This document shows positions 3,856 through 17,551 of a stretch of DNA of 51,929 bases, piece by piece. Under the pieces are notes generated by a model. The model did no database searches. It was not told where the DNA came from and worked only from the letters and a program-made list of their open reading frames with translations. The stretch comes from a virus. Taxonomy: Duplodnaviria; Heunggongvirae; Uroviricota; Caudoviricetes. The first letter of the stretch is position 1, and the number at the start of each line of letters is the position of its first letter. The stretch is taken from positions 1-51,929 of IMG/VR virus record IMGVR_UViG_2541047794_000002; one strand, given 5' to 3'. The translations under genes were made by a program, and so were the position numbers.

Positions 3856-4146
3856 TTAGTGATTGAGGCCGTTACCGCGTCCGTCGAGAAAAACTTCCAC
3901 GAGCAAATCACGGGTATAAGTGCGCTCGATGCCGCGATGCAGATAAAGCCGTCCGCGTAAATTAGCTGATGCAGTCCAGGTACCATCTTTGTGTTTGACC
4001 AGCATTCCTGGCATGACCGCACCTCGATTAACGGTCTGCGTTCCGTAATGTTGATGAACCATAAAAACTCCTGCCCGTAAGCTGGGCTGCTGAACATATA
4101 GAGACTTCTGCGCGTATTCAGGCGGTGGATGGCCGCCGGTTGTCAT
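3856..4146 (-). CDS. Hypothetical protein, first gene of the leftward early operon (position of kil/cIII/N in lambda)
   Basis: 97-aa ORF from an internal Met of the 3856..4266 ORF; no arginine-rich N-like motif. Confidence 0.4.
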
Positions 4147-4299
4147 AACTAAGCCGCCTCGTTGAAGCGACTGAGGTATGAGGTGTTGAGTTGATTTCAG
4201 CTGGTCACACCGACGTTCACGCGTCCGCTTCACCCCTCGCACTCCCCGGAGCCTGCTGAAATTCAAGCTGCGGATCTAAGCGGTCATCGCAACGGTGAA

Positions 4300-4400
4300 T
4301 CAGGTGATTGCCGTATCGTTGTGTTGTTGCGACATGGTGATAATAGCTATTGCTATTGGCTATATCAATACTTATTGCTATTAATTGATGTGTTTTGATA
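4300..4400. promoter_or_regulatory. Putative OL/PL operator-promoter region
   Basis: AT-rich intergenic region with two copies of ATTGCTATT (about 4349 and 4374), the same motif that occurs twice between cI and cro. Confidence 0.45.
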
Positions 4401-4494
4401 TTAACTGTTTGATAGCAAAAAGAATTAATTTTGTGACTTGCATCGCATAGCGATAACTGAAGCGAGGTCGTGGTGGTTTTTTGAACGGTTTATG

Positions 4495-4528
4495 TGATGA
4501 GGGGAGGCAAAAGAAAACCCGGCACGAC
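4495..4528 (-). terminator. Rho-independent terminator downstream of the 287-aa gene
   Basis: On the minus strand, CCCCGGC-cgtcgt-GCCGGG hairpin followed by TTTTCTTTT, just 3' of the stop at 4540. Confidence 0.6.
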
Positions 4529-4539
4529 GGCCGGGGAAA

Positions 4540-5403
4540 TCATTTCGCATCTACAATAAATAACCTGTTTATCTGGCCTTTTTTAACAGTAGCCTTTGCG
4601 GTTATAGTGAATACTGCAGATGGATCACCTTTGGTTGATATATATGCACTAAGAGCTCTAATATACGGGTTATTCTTCTTTCCTGCAGCTGGATCGCTAA
4701 TTTCAGCAGTGATTCTCTTTTTTGAGTCATCACCATCTAAAATTATTTTAGCTGTCATATTTTGTGCATCAAATTCTGTAAGAAAAGCACGATACTCACG
4801 AAGACCGAGAACTTCATCATCATCAAGCCTATCAATTTCAGCTTTATCTCTCTCGTTAACTTTTAGAAGGCAGCCGTCAACATTTGTTGCAACACTTATC
4901 TGATCGCAAGTATTACCAATAGGTGATACTGCCTGCCTTACAGAGGGGCGAAGCTCTACAGCCATTCGGTCAATCAAAGAGATCAACTTATCAATGGTTC
5001 CAGCATCCTTGTTTCCTAGTGCCTCTATGGCCTTTTCAAGTGACTGCTGCAAAGCTTTCATTTCATCTTTCTTGTTAGAATTTCTCGCAAAAATATATTG
5101 TAGTATTGCGCCAAGTATAGTTGCGGCGATCCCCGAGAACAACTGGTTCTGAGTGGCGAAGTTAAGAACTGCTTCAAGAGTAAAGCAGTTAGCTTTTGCT
5201 TCGCGTGCGTAAACCTTAACTTCCTGATAATTAATGTATTTACTATATTTTTGTGTAACAGAGAAAGAAGCTGCTGTTGAGAGAACTTTAGAAAAACCCT
5301 TTAGGGATTCTCCTAGGCAGTTCAAATCTATTTCATGATTTAAAGCATCTTTTCCGTCATACCTAAGAGAGATTTTTATATCCTGTAAAGCGTCACAATC
5401 CAT
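4540..5403 (-). CDS. Unknown 287-aa protein in the immunity region directly downstream of cI (rexAB position); candidate lysogen-expressed exclusion/defence gene
   Basis: Long AT-rich ORF, co-directional with cI, followed by its own terminator. One hydrophobic segment ([18 protein letters not shown]). No recognised domain. Confidence 0.6.
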
Positions 5404-5469
5404 AAATCGCTCTCGTCTAATTCTAATTAAATTTACTATCCCCTAAACGACTCATCAGCACAGTACTGA

Positions 5470-6162
5470 TTATCCATGTTTCCTGTACGTCTGGGGCATG
5501 CTCCCAATAACCTTACCGAAGATGAACACCCGGTTCATCTCGTCTTTCTCGATCGGGTCCCACGGTGAGTAGCTCTTGTTATCAGAGATAACCAGCAGCT
5601 TATCCTTCATCATTTGCAGGCGCTTTACATGGGCGGTGTCGTCGTACAGAAACGCATAGATGCCATCACCGTCGAAAGATTTAACCGTGATATCAACGAA
5701 CAGAAGATCACCAGGTTCAATCGTTCCTGACATGCTGTCACCGCGTACGTTAATGATGCGGATATTTTCTGCCTTCCTACCATCGAACATGTGACGAGCA
5801 TCGTCAAACGAGTACTCAACCGAGCGTAGAACTTCTACAAACTCACGGTTGATGACTCCCGGCCCGGCACTCACTTCTATATCAAGAACGTCAATCTTGA
5901 AGTATTTGGGATGGTTGGCAGTAGGCTTCCCTAATTGTTGACCGTCATTTCTCATCGGGCCTATGCCTGATGAGAGCCACTCTGTTCGAACACCCAATGC
6001 ATTAGCTATTTCAACAATTTTTGTTGAGCCGCGCGCGTTGCCGCTTGTCAGTCTCCAGATTGTGGGTTGAGCTACGCCAGACGCCTTTGCAAGAGCGCCT
6101 TGAGACATTCCAGATTGTTCCATCGCTAGGTTTAAGCGATCAGCAAGAGTTTCTTTTTTCAT
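5470..6162 (-). CDS. cI: CI-type prophage repressor (HTH plus S24 LexA-like peptidase domain)
   Basis: N-terminal HTH (SQGALAKASGVAQPTIWRL) and C-terminal S24 motifs (GDSM...KRL). ATG at 6160-6162 sits directly at the operator region, compatible with a leaderless PRM transcript as in lambda. Confidence 0.85.
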   Translation of the reverse strand: MKKETLADRLNLAMEQSGMSQGALAKASGVAQPTIWRLTSGNARGSTKIVEIANALGVRTEWLSSGIGPMRNDGQQLGKPTANHPKYFKIDVLDIEVSAGPGVINREFVEVLRSVEYSFDDARHMFDGRKAENIRIINVRGDSMSGTIEPGDLLFVDITVKSFDGDGIYAFLYDDTAHVKRLQMMKDKLLVISDNKSYSPWDPIEKDEMNRVFIFGKVIGSMPQTYRKHG

Positions 6163-6272
6163 AAGTTTTAATTTATACGCTTGCGTATTGATGGTCAAAA
6201 CACGTTTTGCTATTGCTATGATTAATACGCATTGCTATTATTTATTCATTGTAATACCAATAGGAATTAATA
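6163..6272. promoter_or_regulatory. Putative OR / PR / PRM divergent promoter-operator region
   Basis: Intergenic region between divergent cI and cro with two ATTGCTATT copies (about 6207 and 6231). Confidence 0.55.
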
Positions 6273-6500
6273 ATGACAAATCAAACCATTCAACTCGCAA
6301 TCAGTATTACAGGTAGTCAAAAACGACTGGCAGATCTATGCGGTGTAGCCCAGCCCACTGTTTGGCGTTGGCTACACGGTGGCGGAATTGATGCCCGCTA
6401 TGTAATGAAAATTGTCTCAGCCACTGGTGGAAAGATTAAACCAGCAGATATTCGTCCCGACCTCGCACCATTGTTTAACGCGAGTAATTCTGCCGCCTAA
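6273..6500 (+). CDS. cro: Cro-like HTH regulator
   Basis: 75 aa with HTH (QKRLADLCGVAQPTVWRW), divergent from cI. Confidence 0.8.
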   Translation: MTNQTIQLAISITGSQKRLADLCGVAQPTVWRWLHGGGIDARYVMKIVSATGGKIKPADIRPDLAPLFNASNSAA

Positions 6501-6524
6501 TCTGCGGCGTTAACTGATAAGGCA

Positions 6525-7070
6525 ATGACTATGCAACCACTTACATACCAACAGACTAGCGGATTTAGCCCGACTGCGGTGATAAATCGTTCTCAAACAA
6601 AACAGGCGCCAGGCCACGAAAAAATCCGTGATGCCGTTCGCGCCTGGTCGGCTGCAGATAATCAGGATGTTGTTGCCGCACTCATTGTGAATGAGTATCG
6701 GGAGCAGGGCGGCGGCACCATCGATTTCCCTGATGATGTCAGCCGTGCACGCCAGAAGCTGTTCCGCTTCCTCGATAACAAATTCGATTCTGAAAAATAC
6801 CGAAATAACGTGCGTGAACTGACCCCGGCAATTCTGGCGGTACTACCGCTGGAATATCGCGGCCACCTGGTTGAGCAGGATAGCTTCATGGCTCGGCTGG
6901 CTGAAATGGAAAAGGAACTCAGTGAGGCAAAACAGGCTGTCATTCTCAACGCACCACGCCACCAGAAACTGAAGGAGATGAGTGAAGGCATTGTGTCGAT
7001 GTTTCGTGTGGACCCGGATCTGGCTGGTCCACTGATGGCGATGGTCACCACCATGCTGGGGGCAATATGA
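6525..7070 (+). CDS. YdaT-family protein (CII-position regulator)
   Basis: 181 aa; ...YREQGGG...LTPAILAVLPLEYR... resembles Rac prophage YdaT; sits between cro and O. Confidence 0.65.
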   Translation: MTMQPLTYQQTSGFSPTAVINRSQTKQAPGHEKIRDAVRAWSAADNQDVVAALIVNEYREQGGGTIDFPDDVSRARQKLFRFLDNKFDSEKYRNNVRELTPAILAVLPLEYRGHLVEQDSFMARLAEMEKELSEAKQAVILNAPRHQKLKEMSEGIVSMFRVDPDLAGPLMAMVTTMLGAI

Positions 7071-7156
7071 CAGGTTCGGAAATGGCGAAAGCCGGTCTGC
7101 GCGAACAGAACCGACTTTCAGGTGCAAATCGTAACACACTCATTGCGGGAGGAATT

Positions 7157-8086
7157 ATGGCAAACACTGCTGAGATATTCAATTTTCCAGTGCCGGATGT
7201 GGCACAAAAGGAGCCGCGCGTGGCAGATCTCGATGATGGTTATACGCGCATTGCAAATGAGTTGCTGGAAGCTGTGATGCTGGCCGGATTAACACAGCAC
7301 CAGCTTCTGGTCTTCCTGGCTGTCATGCGCAAAACATATGGCTTTAATAAAAAACTGGATTGGGTGAGCAACGAGCAACTTTCCGAGTTGACCGGGATAT
7401 TGCCGCACAAGTGTTCTGCTGCAAAAAGTGTTCTGATAAAGCGTGGGATTTTTATTCAGAGCGGGCGGAATATCGGCATTAATAATGTGGTCAGTGAATG
7501 GTCAACATTACCCGAATCAGGTAAGAAAAATAAAGTTTACCTGAAAGAGGTAAATTTACCTGAATCAGGTAAGAAAAGTTTACCCAAATCAGGTAAAGAC
7601 GTTTACCCGAATCAGGTAAACACAAAAGACAAACTAACAAAAGACAATATAAAACCTTTTTCGTCCGAGAATTCTGGCGAATCCTCTGACCAGCCAGAAA
7701 ACGATCTTCCTGTGGTGAAACCGGATGCTGCAATTCAGAGCGGCAGCAAGTGGGGGACAGCAGAAGACCTGACCGCCGCAGAGTGGATGTTTGACATGGT
7801 GAAGACCATCGCGCCATCAGCCAGAAAACCGAATTTTGCAGGGTGGGCTAACGATATCCGCCTGATGCGTGAACGTGACGGACGTAACCACCGCGACATG
7901 TGTGTACTGTTCCGCTGGGCATGCCAGGACAACTTCTGGTCCGGTAACGTGCTAAGTCCGGCCAAACTCCGCGACAAGTGGACCCAACTCGAAATCAACC
8001 GTAACAAGCAACAGGCTGGCGTGACAGCCGGAAAATCAAAACTCGACCTGACAAACACTGACTGGATTTATGGGGTGGATTTATGA
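7157..8086 (+). CDS. O: Replication initiator O
   Basis: From the ATG preceded by GGAGG: MANTAEIFNF...VADLDDGYTRIANELLEA... matches lambda O; C-terminus nearly identical to lambda O. Confidence 0.9.
   Translation: MANTAEIFNFPVPDVAQKEPRVADLDDGYTRIANELLEAVMLAGLTQHQLLVFLAVMRKTYGFNKKLDWVSNEQLSELTGILPHKCSAAKSVLIKRGIFIQSGRNIGINNVVSEWSTLPESGKKNKVYLKEVNLPESGKKSLPKSGKDVYPNQVNTKDKLTKDNIKPFSSENSGESSDQPENDLPVVKPDAAIQSGSKWGTAEDLTAAEWMFDMVKTIAPSARKPNFAGWANDIRLMRERDGRNHRDMCVLFRWACQDNFWSGNVLSPAKLRDKWTQLEINRNKQQAGVTAGKSKLDLTNTDWIYGVDL
7500..7615. repeat. ori iterons inside the O gene
   Basis: Four tandem copies of about 19 bp, TTACC(C/T)GAATCAGGTAA(G/A), as in lambda ori-lambda. Confidence 0.8.
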
Positions 8087-8784
8087 AAAACATCGCCGCA
8101 CAGATGGTTAACTTTGACCGTGAGCAGATGTGCCGGATCGCCAATAACATGCCGGAACAGTACGACGAAAAGCCGCAGGTACAGCAGGTAGCGCAGATCA
8201 TCAACGGTGTGTTCAGCCAGTTACTGGCAACTTTCCCGGCGAGTCTGGCTAACCGGGACCAGAACGAACTGAACGAAATCCGCCGCCAGTGGGTTCTGGC
8301 TTTCCGGGAAAACGGGATCACCACAATGGAACAGGTTAACGCAGGAATGCGCGTAGCCCGTCGGCAGAATCGACCATTCCTGCCATCACCCGGGCAGTTT
8401 GTTGCCTGGTGTCGGGAAGAAGCATCCGTTACCGCCGGGCTGCCAAACGCCAGCGAGCTGGTTGATATGGTTTACGAGTATTGCCGGAAGCGTGGCCTTT
8501 ATCCGGATGCAGAGTCTTATCCATGGAAATCAAACGCGCATTACTGGTTGGTTACCAACCTGTATCAGAACATGCGAGCCAATGCGCTGACTGACGCGGA
8601 ATTACGGCGCAAGGCTGCCGATGAACTGACCTGTATGACAGCGCGAATTAACCGTGGTGAGGCTATACCTGAACCAGTAAAACAAATTCCTGTCATGGGC
8701 GGTAGACCTCTAAATCGTGCACAGGCTCTGGCGAAGATCGCAGAAATCAAAGCTAAGTTTGGGCTGAAAGGAGCAAGAGTATGA
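8083..8784 (+). CDS. P: Replication protein P (DnaB helicase loader)
   Basis: 233 aa, near-identical to lambda P; start overlaps the O stop. Confidence 0.9.
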   Translation: MKNIAAQMVNFDREQMCRIANNMPEQYDEKPQVQQVAQIINGVFSQLLATFPASLANRDQNELNEIRRQWVLAFRENGITTMEQVNAGMRVARRQNRPFLPSPGQFVAWCREEASVTAGLPNASELVDMVYEYCRKRGLYPDAESYPWKSNAHYWLVTNLYQNMRANALTDAELRRKAADELTCMTARINRGEAIPEPVKQIPVMGGRPLNRAQALAKIAEIKAKFGLKGARV

Positions 8785-9083
8785 CGGGCAAAGAGGCAAT
8801 TATTCATTACCTGGGGACTCATAAGAACTTCTGTGCGCAGGACGTTGCCGCGGTAACAGGCGCAACCGTAACCAGCATAAATCAGGCTGCGGCTAAAATG
8901 GCGCGGGCAGGAATCCTGGTCGTTGATGGTAAGGTCTGGCGAACGGTGTATTATCGGTTCGCTACCAGAGAAGAACGGGAAGGAAAGGTGAGCGCGAATT
9001 TGATTTTTAAGGAGTGTCGCCAGAGTGCCGCGATGAAACGGGTATTGAGGGTATATAAAAGAACATCAATGGGTACACAATGA
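8781..9083 (+). CDS. ren: Ren (Rex exclusion relief protein)
   Basis: MTGKEAIIHYLGTHKNFCAQDVAAVTGATVTSINQAAAKMARAG... matches lambda Ren. Confidence 0.85.
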   Translation: MTGKEAIIHYLGTHKNFCAQDVAAVTGATVTSINQAAAKMARAGILVVDGKVWRTVYYRFATREEREGKVSANLIFKECRQSAAMKRVLRVYKRTSMGTQ

Positions 9084-9150
9084 TGAAACAGGTGAGTTGA
9101 GTTCAAACTGTAGTACAATTCTCTCCAGTTTGAACAGGAAAGAATATGCT

Positions 9151-9483
9151 ATGAACCCTTATATTTATCTTGGTGGTGCAATACTTGCACAGGTCATTGG
9201 TACAACCTTAATGAAGTTTTCAGAAGGTTTTACACGGTTATGGCCATCTGTTGGTACAATTATTTGTTATTGTGCATCATTCTGGTTATTAGCTCAGACG
9301 CTGGCTTATATACCTACAGGGATTGCTTATGCTATCTGGTCAGGAGTCGGTATTGTCCTGATTAGCTTACTATCATGGGGATTTTTCGGCCAACGGTTGG
9401 ACCTGCCAGCCATTATAGGCATGATGTTGATTTGTGCCGGTGTGTTGGTTATTAATTTATTGTCACGAAGCACACCACATTAA
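9151..9483 (+). CDS. emrE: Small multidrug resistance (SMR) efflux transporter EmrE
   Basis: From internal Met: MNPYIYLGGAILAQVIGTTLMKFSEGFTRLWPS... is the E. coli EmrE sequence (DLP12 prophage cargo). Confidence 0.9.
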   Translation: MNPYIYLGGAILAQVIGTTLMKFSEGFTRLWPSVGTIICYCASFWLLAQTLAYIPTGIAYAIWSGVGIVLISLLSWGFFGQRLDLPAIIGMMLICAGVLVINLLSRSTPH

Positions 9484-9738
9484 AAATAATTTATTTTTAA
9501 ACGACTAAAATATGGAGGTTCGTATATTTGTATGGGCCTCGTTTTATGCTTTTTGTTAATGTCTTTAGTTTTTATTCATTCTTTTGAACTTTCAAGATTA
9601 TGGTGTAAGAAAATTGCAATACGATTATTGTTGTATATTCAAGATAATGTGACCTTAATTGTCTTTTTAAATAAAAATTAAACAAAAATCATATCTCACC
9701 ACTAAGGTTTATAAAAGCATACTTTAGCAGGTGTCACC

Positions 9739-11265
9739 ATGAAAAAAGCCATAGCATATATGCGATTTTCATCACCAGGTCAGATGTCTGGTGATTCATT
9801 AAACCGCCAGAGAAGGCTTATTACTGAATGGCTAAAGGTAAATAGTGATTATTACCTTGATACCGTAACGTATGAAGATTTGGGGTTAAGCGCATTCAAT
9901 GGAAAGCATGCACAATCAGGAGCTTTTTCGGAATTTTTAGATGCTATAGAACATGGTTACATATTGCCAGGGACTACATTGTTAGTTGAAAGTCTGGACA
10001 GACTTTCAAGAGAAAAAGTCGGTGAAGCGATTGAGCGTCTGAAATTGATTTTGAATCACGGTATTGATGTTATAACTCTTTGCGATAATACAGTCTATAA
10101 TATAGACTCATTGAATGAGCCATATTCATTAATAAAAGCCATACTTATAGCACAAAGGGCAAATGAAGAAAGCGAGATAAAGTCAAGTCGGGTTAAATTA
10201 TCATGGAAGAAAAAACGGCAGGATGCACTGGAATCAGGCACGATTATGACGGCGTCTTGTCCGAGATGGCTCTCATTGGATGACAAAAGAACAGCTTTTA
10301 TTCCAGACCCCGACAGGGTGAAAACGATTGAGCTAATTTTTAAACTCAGGATGGAAAGGCGATCATTGAATGCAATAGCTAAGTATTTAAATGATCATGC
10401 TGTAAAAAATTTTTCAGGAAAAGAAAGTGCATGGGGGCCTTCTGTAATTGAAAAATTATTAGCGAATAAAGCTCTGATAGGTATATGCGTACCTTCATAT
10501 CGTGCAAGAGGGAAAGGGATAAGTGAAATCGCTGGCTATTATCCCAGAGTCATATCAGATGATTTGTTTTACGCTGTACAGGAAATTCGGTTGGCACCTT
10601 TTGGTATTAGCAATAGTAGCAAGAATCCTATGCTAATAAATCTACTTCGAACAGTTATGAAGTGTGAGGCTTGTGGTAATACCATGATTGTTCATGCGGT
10701 ATCTGGACGTTTGCATGGCTATTATGTTTGTCCGATGAGAAGATTACATCGATGTGACAGGCCATCAATAAAAAGAGATTTGGTTGATTATAATATCATT
10801 AATGAATTGCTTTTTAATTGTAGCAAAATTCAACCAGTTGAAAACAAGAAAGATGCTAATGAAACTTTAGAGTTAAAAATTATTGAGCTTCAGATGAAAA
10901 TTAATAATTTAATCGTTGCATTGTCTGTCGCGCCTGAAGTTACCGCTATAGCAGAGAAAATAAGACTATTAGATAAGGAATTACGAAGGGCTTCGGTATC
11001 ATTAAAAACTTTGAAGAGTAAAGGGGTGAGTTCACTTGGTGATTTTCATGCTATTGATTTAACCAGTAAAAATGGGCGAGAGCTATGTCGTACACTTGCC
11101 TATAAAATATTCGAAAAAATTATAATTAATACAGATAATAAAACCTGTGATATCTATTTTATGAATGGCATTGTTTTTAAACACTATCCTTTAATGAAAG
11201 TAATATCCGCCCAGCAGGCGATAAGCACTCTTAAATATATGGTTGATGGTGAGATTTATTTTTGA
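9739..11265 (+). CDS. ybcK: Large serine recombinase (YbcK-like)
   Basis: 508 aa; N-terminal resolvase motif YMRFSSPGQ with catalytic Ser; AT-rich gene. Confidence 0.8.
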   Translation: MKKAIAYMRFSSPGQMSGDSLNRQRRLITEWLKVNSDYYLDTVTYEDLGLSAFNGKHAQSGAFSEFLDAIEHGYILPGTTLLVESLDRLSREKVGEAIERLKLILNHGIDVITLCDNTVYNIDSLNEPYSLIKAILIAQRANEESEIKSSRVKLSWKKKRQDALESGTIMTASCPRWLSLDDKRTAFIPDPDRVKTIELIFKLRMERRSLNAIAKYLNDHAVKNFSGKESAWGPSVIEKLLANKALIGICVPSYRARGKGISEIAGYYPRVISDDLFYAVQEIRLAPFGISNSSKNPMLINLLRTVMKCEACGNTMIVHAVSGRLHGYYVCPMRRLHRCDRPSIKRDLVDYNIINELLFNCSKIQPVENKKDANETLELKIIELQMKINNLIVALSVAPEVTAIAEKIRLLDKELRRASVSLKTLKSKGVSSLGDFHAIDLTSKNGRELCRTLAYKIFEKIIINTDNKTCDIYFMNGIVFKHYPLMKVISAQQAISTLKYMVDGEIYF

Positions 11266-17054: not shown

Positions 17055-17551
17055 TGTCGCCATCATTACGCAAGGCTATTGCTGCTGCTATTGGTGGTGG
17101 GGCTGTTGCCATAGCGTCTGTGCTCATCACTGGTCCGAGTGGTGACGATGGCCTGGAAGGTGTCAGCTACATACCATACAAAGATATCGTTGGCGTATGG
17201 ACTGTATGTCACGGACACACCGGAAAAGACATCATGCTCGGTAAAACGTATACCGAAGCAGAATGCAAAGCCCTCCTGAATAAAGACCTTGCCACTGTCG
17301 CCAGACAAATTAACCCGTACATCAAAGTCGATATACCGGAAACAACGCGCGGCGCTCTTTACTCGTTCGTTTACAACGTGGGCGCTGGCAATTTCAGAAC
17401 ATCGACGCTTCTTCGCAAAATAAACCAGGGCGATATCAAAGGCGCATGTGATCAGCTACGGCGCTGGACATACGCTGGCGGTAAGCAATGGAAAGGGCTG
17501 ATGACTCGCCGTGAGATTGAGCGTGAAGTCTGTTTGTGGGGGCAACAATGA
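17054..17551 (+). CDS. rrrD: Endolysin (T4-lysozyme-like, signal-anchor-release type)
   Basis: 165 aa with N-terminal SAR segment and lysozyme catalytic motif (phage 21 R / RrrD). Confidence 0.9.

Follow-up and report, generated by a model that had tools for sequence, protein, structure and literature searches.

Predicted 16 bp cI operators in the two control regions of a DLP12/Perceval-like lambdoid prophage

In phage lambda the genes cI and cro diverge from an intergenic region in which three phased dyads, the right operators (OR), overlie the promoters PR and PRM, and a second set of operators (OL) lies over the promoter PL at a distance of some 2 kb, on the other side of cI and the lysogen-expressed cargo genes rexAB. 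The lambda OR spacings are 24 and 23 bp, its repressor carries an S24 autocleavage domain and its cI mRNA is leaderless. The operators of phage 434 are 14 bp long (ACAAnnnnnnTTGT), with four invariant outer base pairs and a more variable centre, and positions Gln28, Gln29, Ser30 and Gln33 of the 434 repressor read the outer ACAA base pairs. A further arrangement is that of prophage CP-933P of Escherichia coli O157:H7. In its switch (PaaR2/YdaS/YdaT), PR, PRM and PL are placed as in lambda, the repressor mRNA is leaderless, cargo genes share the repressor transcript and OR contains four repeats at equal spacing (Jurenas et al., 2021; PMC8630535). Here we analyse the immunity region of a 51,929 bp stretch of tailed-phage DNA (Caudoviricetes; IMG/VR record IMGVR_UViG_2541047794_000002, positions 1-51,929; hereafter the window), in which a first-pass annotation had noticed that a 9-mer, ATTGCTATT, recurs on both sides of a cI-like gene. 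We estimate a probability of about 0.9 that these words are halves of 16 bp operators for the prophage cI repressor, and presumably for Cro, at PR/PRM and PL.

The locus shares the elements of a lambdoid switch: a helix-turn-helix (HTH) plus S24 repressor with an Ala-Gly site and Ser/Lys dyad motifs, a 110 bp divergent cI-cro intergenic region with three phased dyads overlapping PR and PRM (at 25 bp), a second cluster (OL1 and OL2, a third OL site being doubtful) over PL, separated from the first by about 1.9 kb that include cI and a cargo gene, and operators that in heteroimmune relatives differ in step with the DNA-binding domain of the repressor. Unlike those of lambda, the sites are 16 rather than 17 bp long and unrelated in sequence, the N-terminal domain of the repressor is 434-like, Cro is all-helical and of the YdaS family, the cII analogue belongs to the YdaT family, no N gene follows PL and a fourth OR site is possible.

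The N-terminal domain of cI is nearest to the 434 repressor (E value 2e-6, ungapped over 60 residues), which provides the closest solved DNA-binding domain. The recognition helix (approximately Q32-L38, within AQPTIWRL) opens with a glutamine at the position of 434 Gln28, and Q32, P33, T34 and R37 align with 434 Q28, Q29, S30 and Q33. As these residues read the outer base pairs in 434, the alignment fits an operator with invariant outer AATA/TATT and a variable centre, which is also the operator logic of 434. However, the helix reads QPTIWR here and QQSIEQ in 434, and the sites are AATA...TATT 16-mers predicted to be recognized through Q32/P33/R37 rather than ACAAnnnnnnTTGT read by Gln28/Gln29/Gln33. 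Membership of the 434 immunity type was rejected on these grounds, and no cross-immunity with 434 is expected. With CP-933P the locus shares the YdaS-family Cro and YdaT-family CII analogues to the right of OR, and the four OR repeats of that prophage parallel the possible fourth site; in contrast to CP-933P, the repressor is a classical HTH plus S24 cI and the cargo carries DUF7946 and DUF7947 instead of a toxin-antitoxin pair. The CP-933P operator consensus, GTTTAGTAA, is absent from positions 4300-6300 at up to one mismatch, and elsewhere in the window it gives five matches against 7.8 expected by chance.

The operators are undescribed in the literature searched on the motif, Perceval, CP-933V, GevT/GevA and DUF7946/7947, a search that left out most subscription journals. 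The operator sequence of this immunity type is apparently new, within the architecture of a textbook lambda-type switch; only a possible fourth operator at the cro ribosome-binding site, and the fact that heteroimmune repressors share an identical C-terminal domain, point beyond the textbook.

A two-fold symmetric dyad in both control regions

The + strand of the window contains three exact copies of ATTGCTATT, at 4349, 4374 and 6231, and the - strand none; whole-window shuffles contain 0.63 copies on average and reach three in two of 100 cases. The first-pass annotation had counted two copies in each control region, which holds for the left one, while the word near 6207 (TTTGCTATT, 6206-6214) has one mismatch, so that the total is three and not four. 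It is overlapped at 6212-6220 by ATTGCTATG, also with one mismatch, which was rejected as a half-site: it is the PR -35 hexamer TTGCTA, and the relatives do not conserve the motif there, having TTGTTA, TTGCCT or TTGATT. The 8-mer TTGCTATT has exactly four copies in the window, every one of them in the two control regions, which are 73-74% AT. Specificity for these regions had been chosen beforehand as the test on which the motif could fail, and the motif withstood it: the remaining window DNA of at least 65% AT (9,297 bp) contains no exact copy of the repeated word, and the density at up to one mismatch is 43.9 per kb in the control regions, compared with 0.97 per kb in other AT-rich DNA and 0.12 per kb elsewhere.

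Repeat finding gave units of 16 nt with a start-to-start spacing of 25 bp in both control regions. Site width was then examined with 30 distinct sites pooled from nine homoimmune loci. The information in these sites is concentrated in positions 1-16, with no more than 0.7 bits just outside; its profile is two-fold symmetric, and A2, A4, T9, T13, A14 and T15 are invariant. The 9-mer corresponds to the right, better-conserved half of the dyad plus one base; it was rejected as the functional unit, since the information content outlines a symmetric unit of 16 bp and the word is missing from OR3 altogether. The predicted functional unit is a 16 bp two-fold-symmetric dyad with the consensus AATA(C/G)(G/C)nW·TnG(C/G)TATT. 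Half-sites are found in either orientation. In OL1 of the relatives AATAGCAA stands on the left and the best-conserved half lies on the opposite side (AATAGCAATGGGTATT), which marks the element as a dyad rather than as a direct repeat.

The repressor that would bind these dyads shows the features of an autopeptidase, with an A99-G100 site, S143 and K180; its GDSM and VKRL segments align with GMSM and VKRL of LexA. The recognition helix of Cro (GVAQPTVWRW) is nearly equal to that of cI (GVAQPTIWRL), and the heteroimmune type has its own matched cI/Cro pair (SQAAIQK and SQQAVYK). This near-identity of helices within both types points to shared sites, and cI and, by inference, Cro probably recognize one set of dyads, as their lambda counterparts do. 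The gene after cro encodes a CII analogue of the YdaT family (PF06254, E value 7.6e-30).

Conservation, covariation and alternative explanations

The OR regions were compared in nine loci from five genera that have the same cI HTH. Phages 4A7, Lambda_4C10, D2, 1W, 3W and Perceval (genus Bievrevirus) have a 100% identical cI, and more diverged relatives come from Klebsiella, Kluyvera, Citrobacter and Raoultella. In the OR alignment (seven lineages), 16 of 16 columns are invariant in OR3, 15 of 16 in OR2, 14 of 16 in OR1 and 2 of 9 in the OR2-OR1 spacer; the promoter hexamers form invariant islands like the three 16-mers. The OR operators of the Klebsiella, Kluyvera, Citrobacter and Raoultella loci match the window at 47-48 of 48 positions, whereas the third positions of codons conserved in the neighbouring N-terminal part of cI are 48-54% identical. 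The exact 25 bp phasing is present in every locus carrying these sites. The same immunity module occurs in a Stx1a prophage of E. coli O157 (644-PT8, 6549-9600), with all OR sites identical and two OL sites 25 bp apart; its cro is annotated as frameshifted, yet all five sites are intact.

Across 11 loci, the presence of the sites follows the HTH of cI and not its C-terminal domain. One locus (L010) matches the window in 44 of 46 HTH residues and in 59 of 140 residues (42%) of the C-terminal domain, and keeps all sites. The reverse combination is found in PhiR47_2 (L004), with 140/140 in the C-terminal domain (5470-5890) and 17/46 in the HTH, where the difference is confined, and in a K. grimontii prophage (L009), with 127/140 and 19/46; neither carries window-type sites. 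Both carry another 16 bp dyad, AACAACnnnnGTTGTT, in the same layout at both clusters, with three OR sites at 23-24 bp spacing, one dyad that has its end at the cro ATG and a pair at OL. No cluster of the AACAACnnnnGTTGTT type was found in the window. The sites and their phasing, their overlap with the promoters, the degree to which they are conserved and the way in which they covary with the DNA-binding domain are direct observations. The first-pass proposal that the repeats are OR and OL half-sites of the phage repressor is supported on four independent counts: by the promoter overlap in a lambda-like geometry, by the invariant islands across five genera, by the tracking of the cI HTH and by the swap of the dyad at OL and OR alike in heteroimmune phages of identical flanks.

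An independent model, trained solely on OL sites from other genera, was used to score 51,914 window positions. It placed OL1 first, OR1 second, OL2 third and the possible fourth OR site (site 4) fourth, the last with 18.0 bits against a shuffle maximum of 18.5. With a model built from OR only (about 104,000 positions) OL2 came fourth and OL1 sixth, and with an OL-only model OR1 was the first non-self match. The strengths predicted by the independent model, OL1 ~ OR1 > OL2 > site 4 > OR2 > OR3, form a lambda-like gradient. Outside the control regions a single operator-like 16-mer, ATTACGCAAGGCTATT at 17065-17080, reaches the top ten (10.9-14.3 bits), which is within chance for 52 kb.

Several points weigh against the assignment of the dyads to cI. 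The literature search retrieved no cI binding, footprinting or reporter data, and the promoter calls are consensus hexamer matches only. The half-sites fall into two classes, AATAGCAA and AATACGCA, which the proposal does not account for. In the independent model OR2 ranks sixth (11.3 bits) and OR3 ninth (9.7 bits), while the best matches in shuffled windows average 11.9 bits; with scores inside the shuffle range, these two sites rest on phasing and conservation and not on score. An 11-mer shared by the two control regions was reached in 75 of 2000 dinucleotide-preserving shuffles of these regions, which is of moderate significance (p ~0.04), and the strong evidence is therefore comparative and does not come from within-window statistics. 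Furthermore, a single swapped block (6027-6529) contains both cro and the HTH part of cI, and covariation cannot assign the sites to either protein.

The composition of this block would also suit a reading of the repeats by Cro (YdaS family) only, or by some other phage or host protein, and not by cI. This is very unlikely: in either immunity type the recognition helices of cI and Cro are almost alike, consistent with sharing of sites as in lambda and CP-933P (PMC8630535), the Stx1a prophage retains its five sites with a frameshifted cro, and a host protein would not covary with the HTH type of the phage. The 9-mer could instead be an iteron-like direct repeat or simply reflect the AT-rich make-up of promoters (-35/-10 or UP-like elements), with no dyad operator involved. 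The exact copies all lie on one strand, the near-copy at 6212 is the PR -35 hexamer and the local shuffle test is only moderate, all of which such an origin would produce; we nevertheless give it a slimmer chance still, because the information is two-fold symmetric over 16 bp, the palindromic OR3 is invariant in seven lineages without containing the 9-mer, the conserved half of OL1 changes sides (AATAGCAATGGGTATT) in the relatives, other AT-rich DNA has no copies and heteroimmune phages keep workable promoters in the same places with a different repeat. Least credible is a chance recurrence of short AT-rich words without function. The AT content of both regions and the two shuffles in 100 that reach three copies would allow it, but chance does not account for near-complete operator identity across genera against about 50% at synonymous positions, for exact phasing in every locus or for the joint replacement of OL and OR in heteroimmune phages, and the comparative data effectively refute it.

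Operator sites, promoters and the proposed switch

The individual sites and predicted promoters are listed in Table 1. Where the first-pass annotation had two OR and two OL sites, the present analysis gives three sites in OR, where a fourth is possible, and two or more in OL. A firm OL3 was not established, as both candidates (4387 and 4411) score low; the distal element at 4411 is kept as GATAGCnAAnnGAATT in nine of nine homoimmune loci and lies inside the immunity-specific block. At site 4, AATAC...TAGGAATT is invariant in nine loci, and at this position the heteroimmune type carries a strong dyad of its own kind (AACCACGGAGGTTGTT, 11/12), which ends at the cro ATG. Site 4 changes in sequence with the immunity type, as would be expected of a real operator.

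Table 1 Predicted operators, promoters and genes of the immunity region (window positions)
Feature	Position	Strand	Description
Left immunity-specific block (OL/PL)	4333-4427		~95 bp; replaced base-for-base in PhiR47_2, no length change
Predicted PL	4340-4368	-	-35 TTGATA (4368-4363), 17 nt spacer, -10 TATTAT (4345-4340); 10/12 consensus matches
OL1	4342-4357		AATAGCTATTGCTATT; overlaps PL -10 and spacer; AATAGCnATnnnTATT kept in nine loci
OL2	4367-4382		AATACTTATTGCTATT; 25 bp from OL1; abuts and overlaps PL -35
Candidate OL3	4387-4402		GATGTGTTTTGATATT; weak, uncertain; relatives keep right-end TATT only; rank 37 in the independent model
Distal conserved element	4411-4426		GATAGCAAAAAGAATT; one good half-site plus GAATT end; role uncertain; rank 18 in the independent model
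Intrinsic terminator-like hairpin	4518-4535	-	CCCGGC...GCCGGG, then T run; would end the cI-cargo transcript just before OL
Cargo gene	4540-5403	-	287 residues; DUF7946 + DUF7947 (Pfam); PHROG 5147, function unknown
cI repressor	5470-6162	-	230 residues; HTH_3 (PF01381) + Peptidase_S24 (PF00717, E value 1.3e-18)
Right immunity-specific block	6027-6529		cI codons 1 to ~45, OR, cro
Predicted PRM	6170-6198	-	-35 TTGACC (6198-6193), 17 nt spacer, -10 TAAATT (6175-6170)
OR3	6174-6189		TATACGCTTGCGTATT; near-perfect palindrome over PRM -10 and spacer; no 9-mer
OR2	6199-6214		AACACGTTTTGCTATT; abuts PRM -35, touches PR -35
Predicted PR	6213-6241	+	-35 TTGCTA, 17 nt spacer, TG-extended -10 TATTAT; reads cro and cII-like gene
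OR1	6224-6239		AATACGCATTGCTATT; overlaps PR spacer and -10
Possible fourth operator (site 4)	6253-6268		AATACCAATAGGAATT; ~+6 to +21 of PR; covers cro Shine-Dalgarno sequence
Cro analogue	6273-6500	+	75 residues; YdaS family (PF15943, E value 9.6e-15)
Cargo slot, 4A7 and PhiR47_2			ASCH + hypothetical protein (annotated GevA/GevT)
Cargo slot, Perceval			Transmembrane protein + hypothetical protein
Cargo slot, Klebsiella phage			ParA-like protein
Cargo slot, O157 Stx1a prophage (L011)			SIR2-family protein

The predicted PL is covered by OL1 and OL2, its hexamers are conserved in the relatives and the genes leftward of it are kil, gam, bet and exo. The predicted PR is overlapped by OR1 and OR2. 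The predicted PRM is flanked by OR2 and covered by OR3, with GGTCAA and AATTTA invariant in nine loci; its -10 hexamer and the start codon of cI are 7 nt apart, so that the cI mRNA would be leaderless, as in lambda and CP-933P. The terminator-like hairpin is also kept in 4A7, Perceval and PhiR47_2. On the - strand, a PL leader of about 270 nt (4063-4335) precedes kil and is conserved between heteroimmune phages. No N-like gene was found downstream of PL, where kil comes first. Because of this, a put-like or nut-like RNA in the leader was considered; it found no support, the leader folding no better than shuffles (z -0.78), and a scan of the whole window against Rfam gave no matches.

From lambda and 434 we infer a filling order, PRM activation, cooperativity, looping between OL and OR, binding by Cro and SOS induction. 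Dimers of cI would occupy OR1/OR2 and OL1/OL2 in the lysogen and turn PR and PL off, and cI bound at OR2 would stimulate PRM, the leaderless message from which would extend across the cargo gene as far as the terminator. At a high repressor level OR3 would be filled and PRM shut. Cro would act on the same sites with the opposite preference. RecA-stimulated self-cleavage at Ala99-Gly100, involving Ser143/Lys180, would lift repression and induce the prophage. A tentative extension, which we consider possible but rather doubtful, is that OR has four operators, with site 4 on the cro ribosome-binding site adding a roadblock, translational or cooperative layer, and that heteroimmune co-residents could form mixed, inactive repressor dimers. 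The identity of the C-terminal domains would permit such mixing between prophages in one cell, and one recombination event would be enough to change immunity.

Immunity region, cargo slot and prophage context

The first-pass annotation had taken the repeated motifs to mark both boundaries of the immunity region. This stands for OL/PL, which lies at the left edge (~4333); OR is internal, and the right edge falls after cro (~6529). The flanks of the left block are near-identical in PhiR47_2, and the block begins at about the predicted PL start site. On the right, homology with PhiR47_2 is lost across the block and returns at 99.4% from 6530. By this comparison the immunity region is in two parts, a 95 bp OL/PL cassette and an HTH-OR-cro cassette, with a cargo-exchange slot between them.

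The cargo gene occupies the slot held by rexAB in lambda and is not part of the switch itself. Its 287-residue product gives a weak match to the PADLOC candidate PDC-S42 (E value 1.5e-4), and other cargo is found in the slot in the relatives (Table 1). The space between cI and the terminator looks like a hotspot for lysogen-expressed cargo or defence genes, equivalent to lambda rexAB. In the LF82 lysogen, the identical cI of Perceval and its neighbouring cargo gene are expressed (PMC9928086).

Downstream of the replication genes, positions 9148-11265 encode an SMR transporter of the EmrE family and a large, YbcK-like serine recombinase, which DLP12 and Perceval likewise have there; this arrangement places the window as a DLP12/Perceval-like (Bievrevirus) lambdoid prophage. 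At the left end (1-186) the C-terminus of an IS21-family IstB abuts a remnant of a lambda-type integrase (196-411, - strand), of which only the 71-residue arm-binding domain is left; the adjoining excisionase is intact. An insertion sequence element seems to have disrupted the integrase, and the prophage may therefore be unable to excise.

The module is present in 718 of 5,426 complete E. coli genomes (~13%), with a median of one copy per genome, as expected of an immunity determinant. The comparison thus offers, from sequence, an operator code for an immunity type common in E. coli, whose carriers include 4A7, Perceval (adherent-invasive E. coli LF82) and the O157 Stx1a-converting prophage. 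The predicted operators would provide targets for footprinting and for engineering or curing prophages, and may allow homoimmunity to be predicted.

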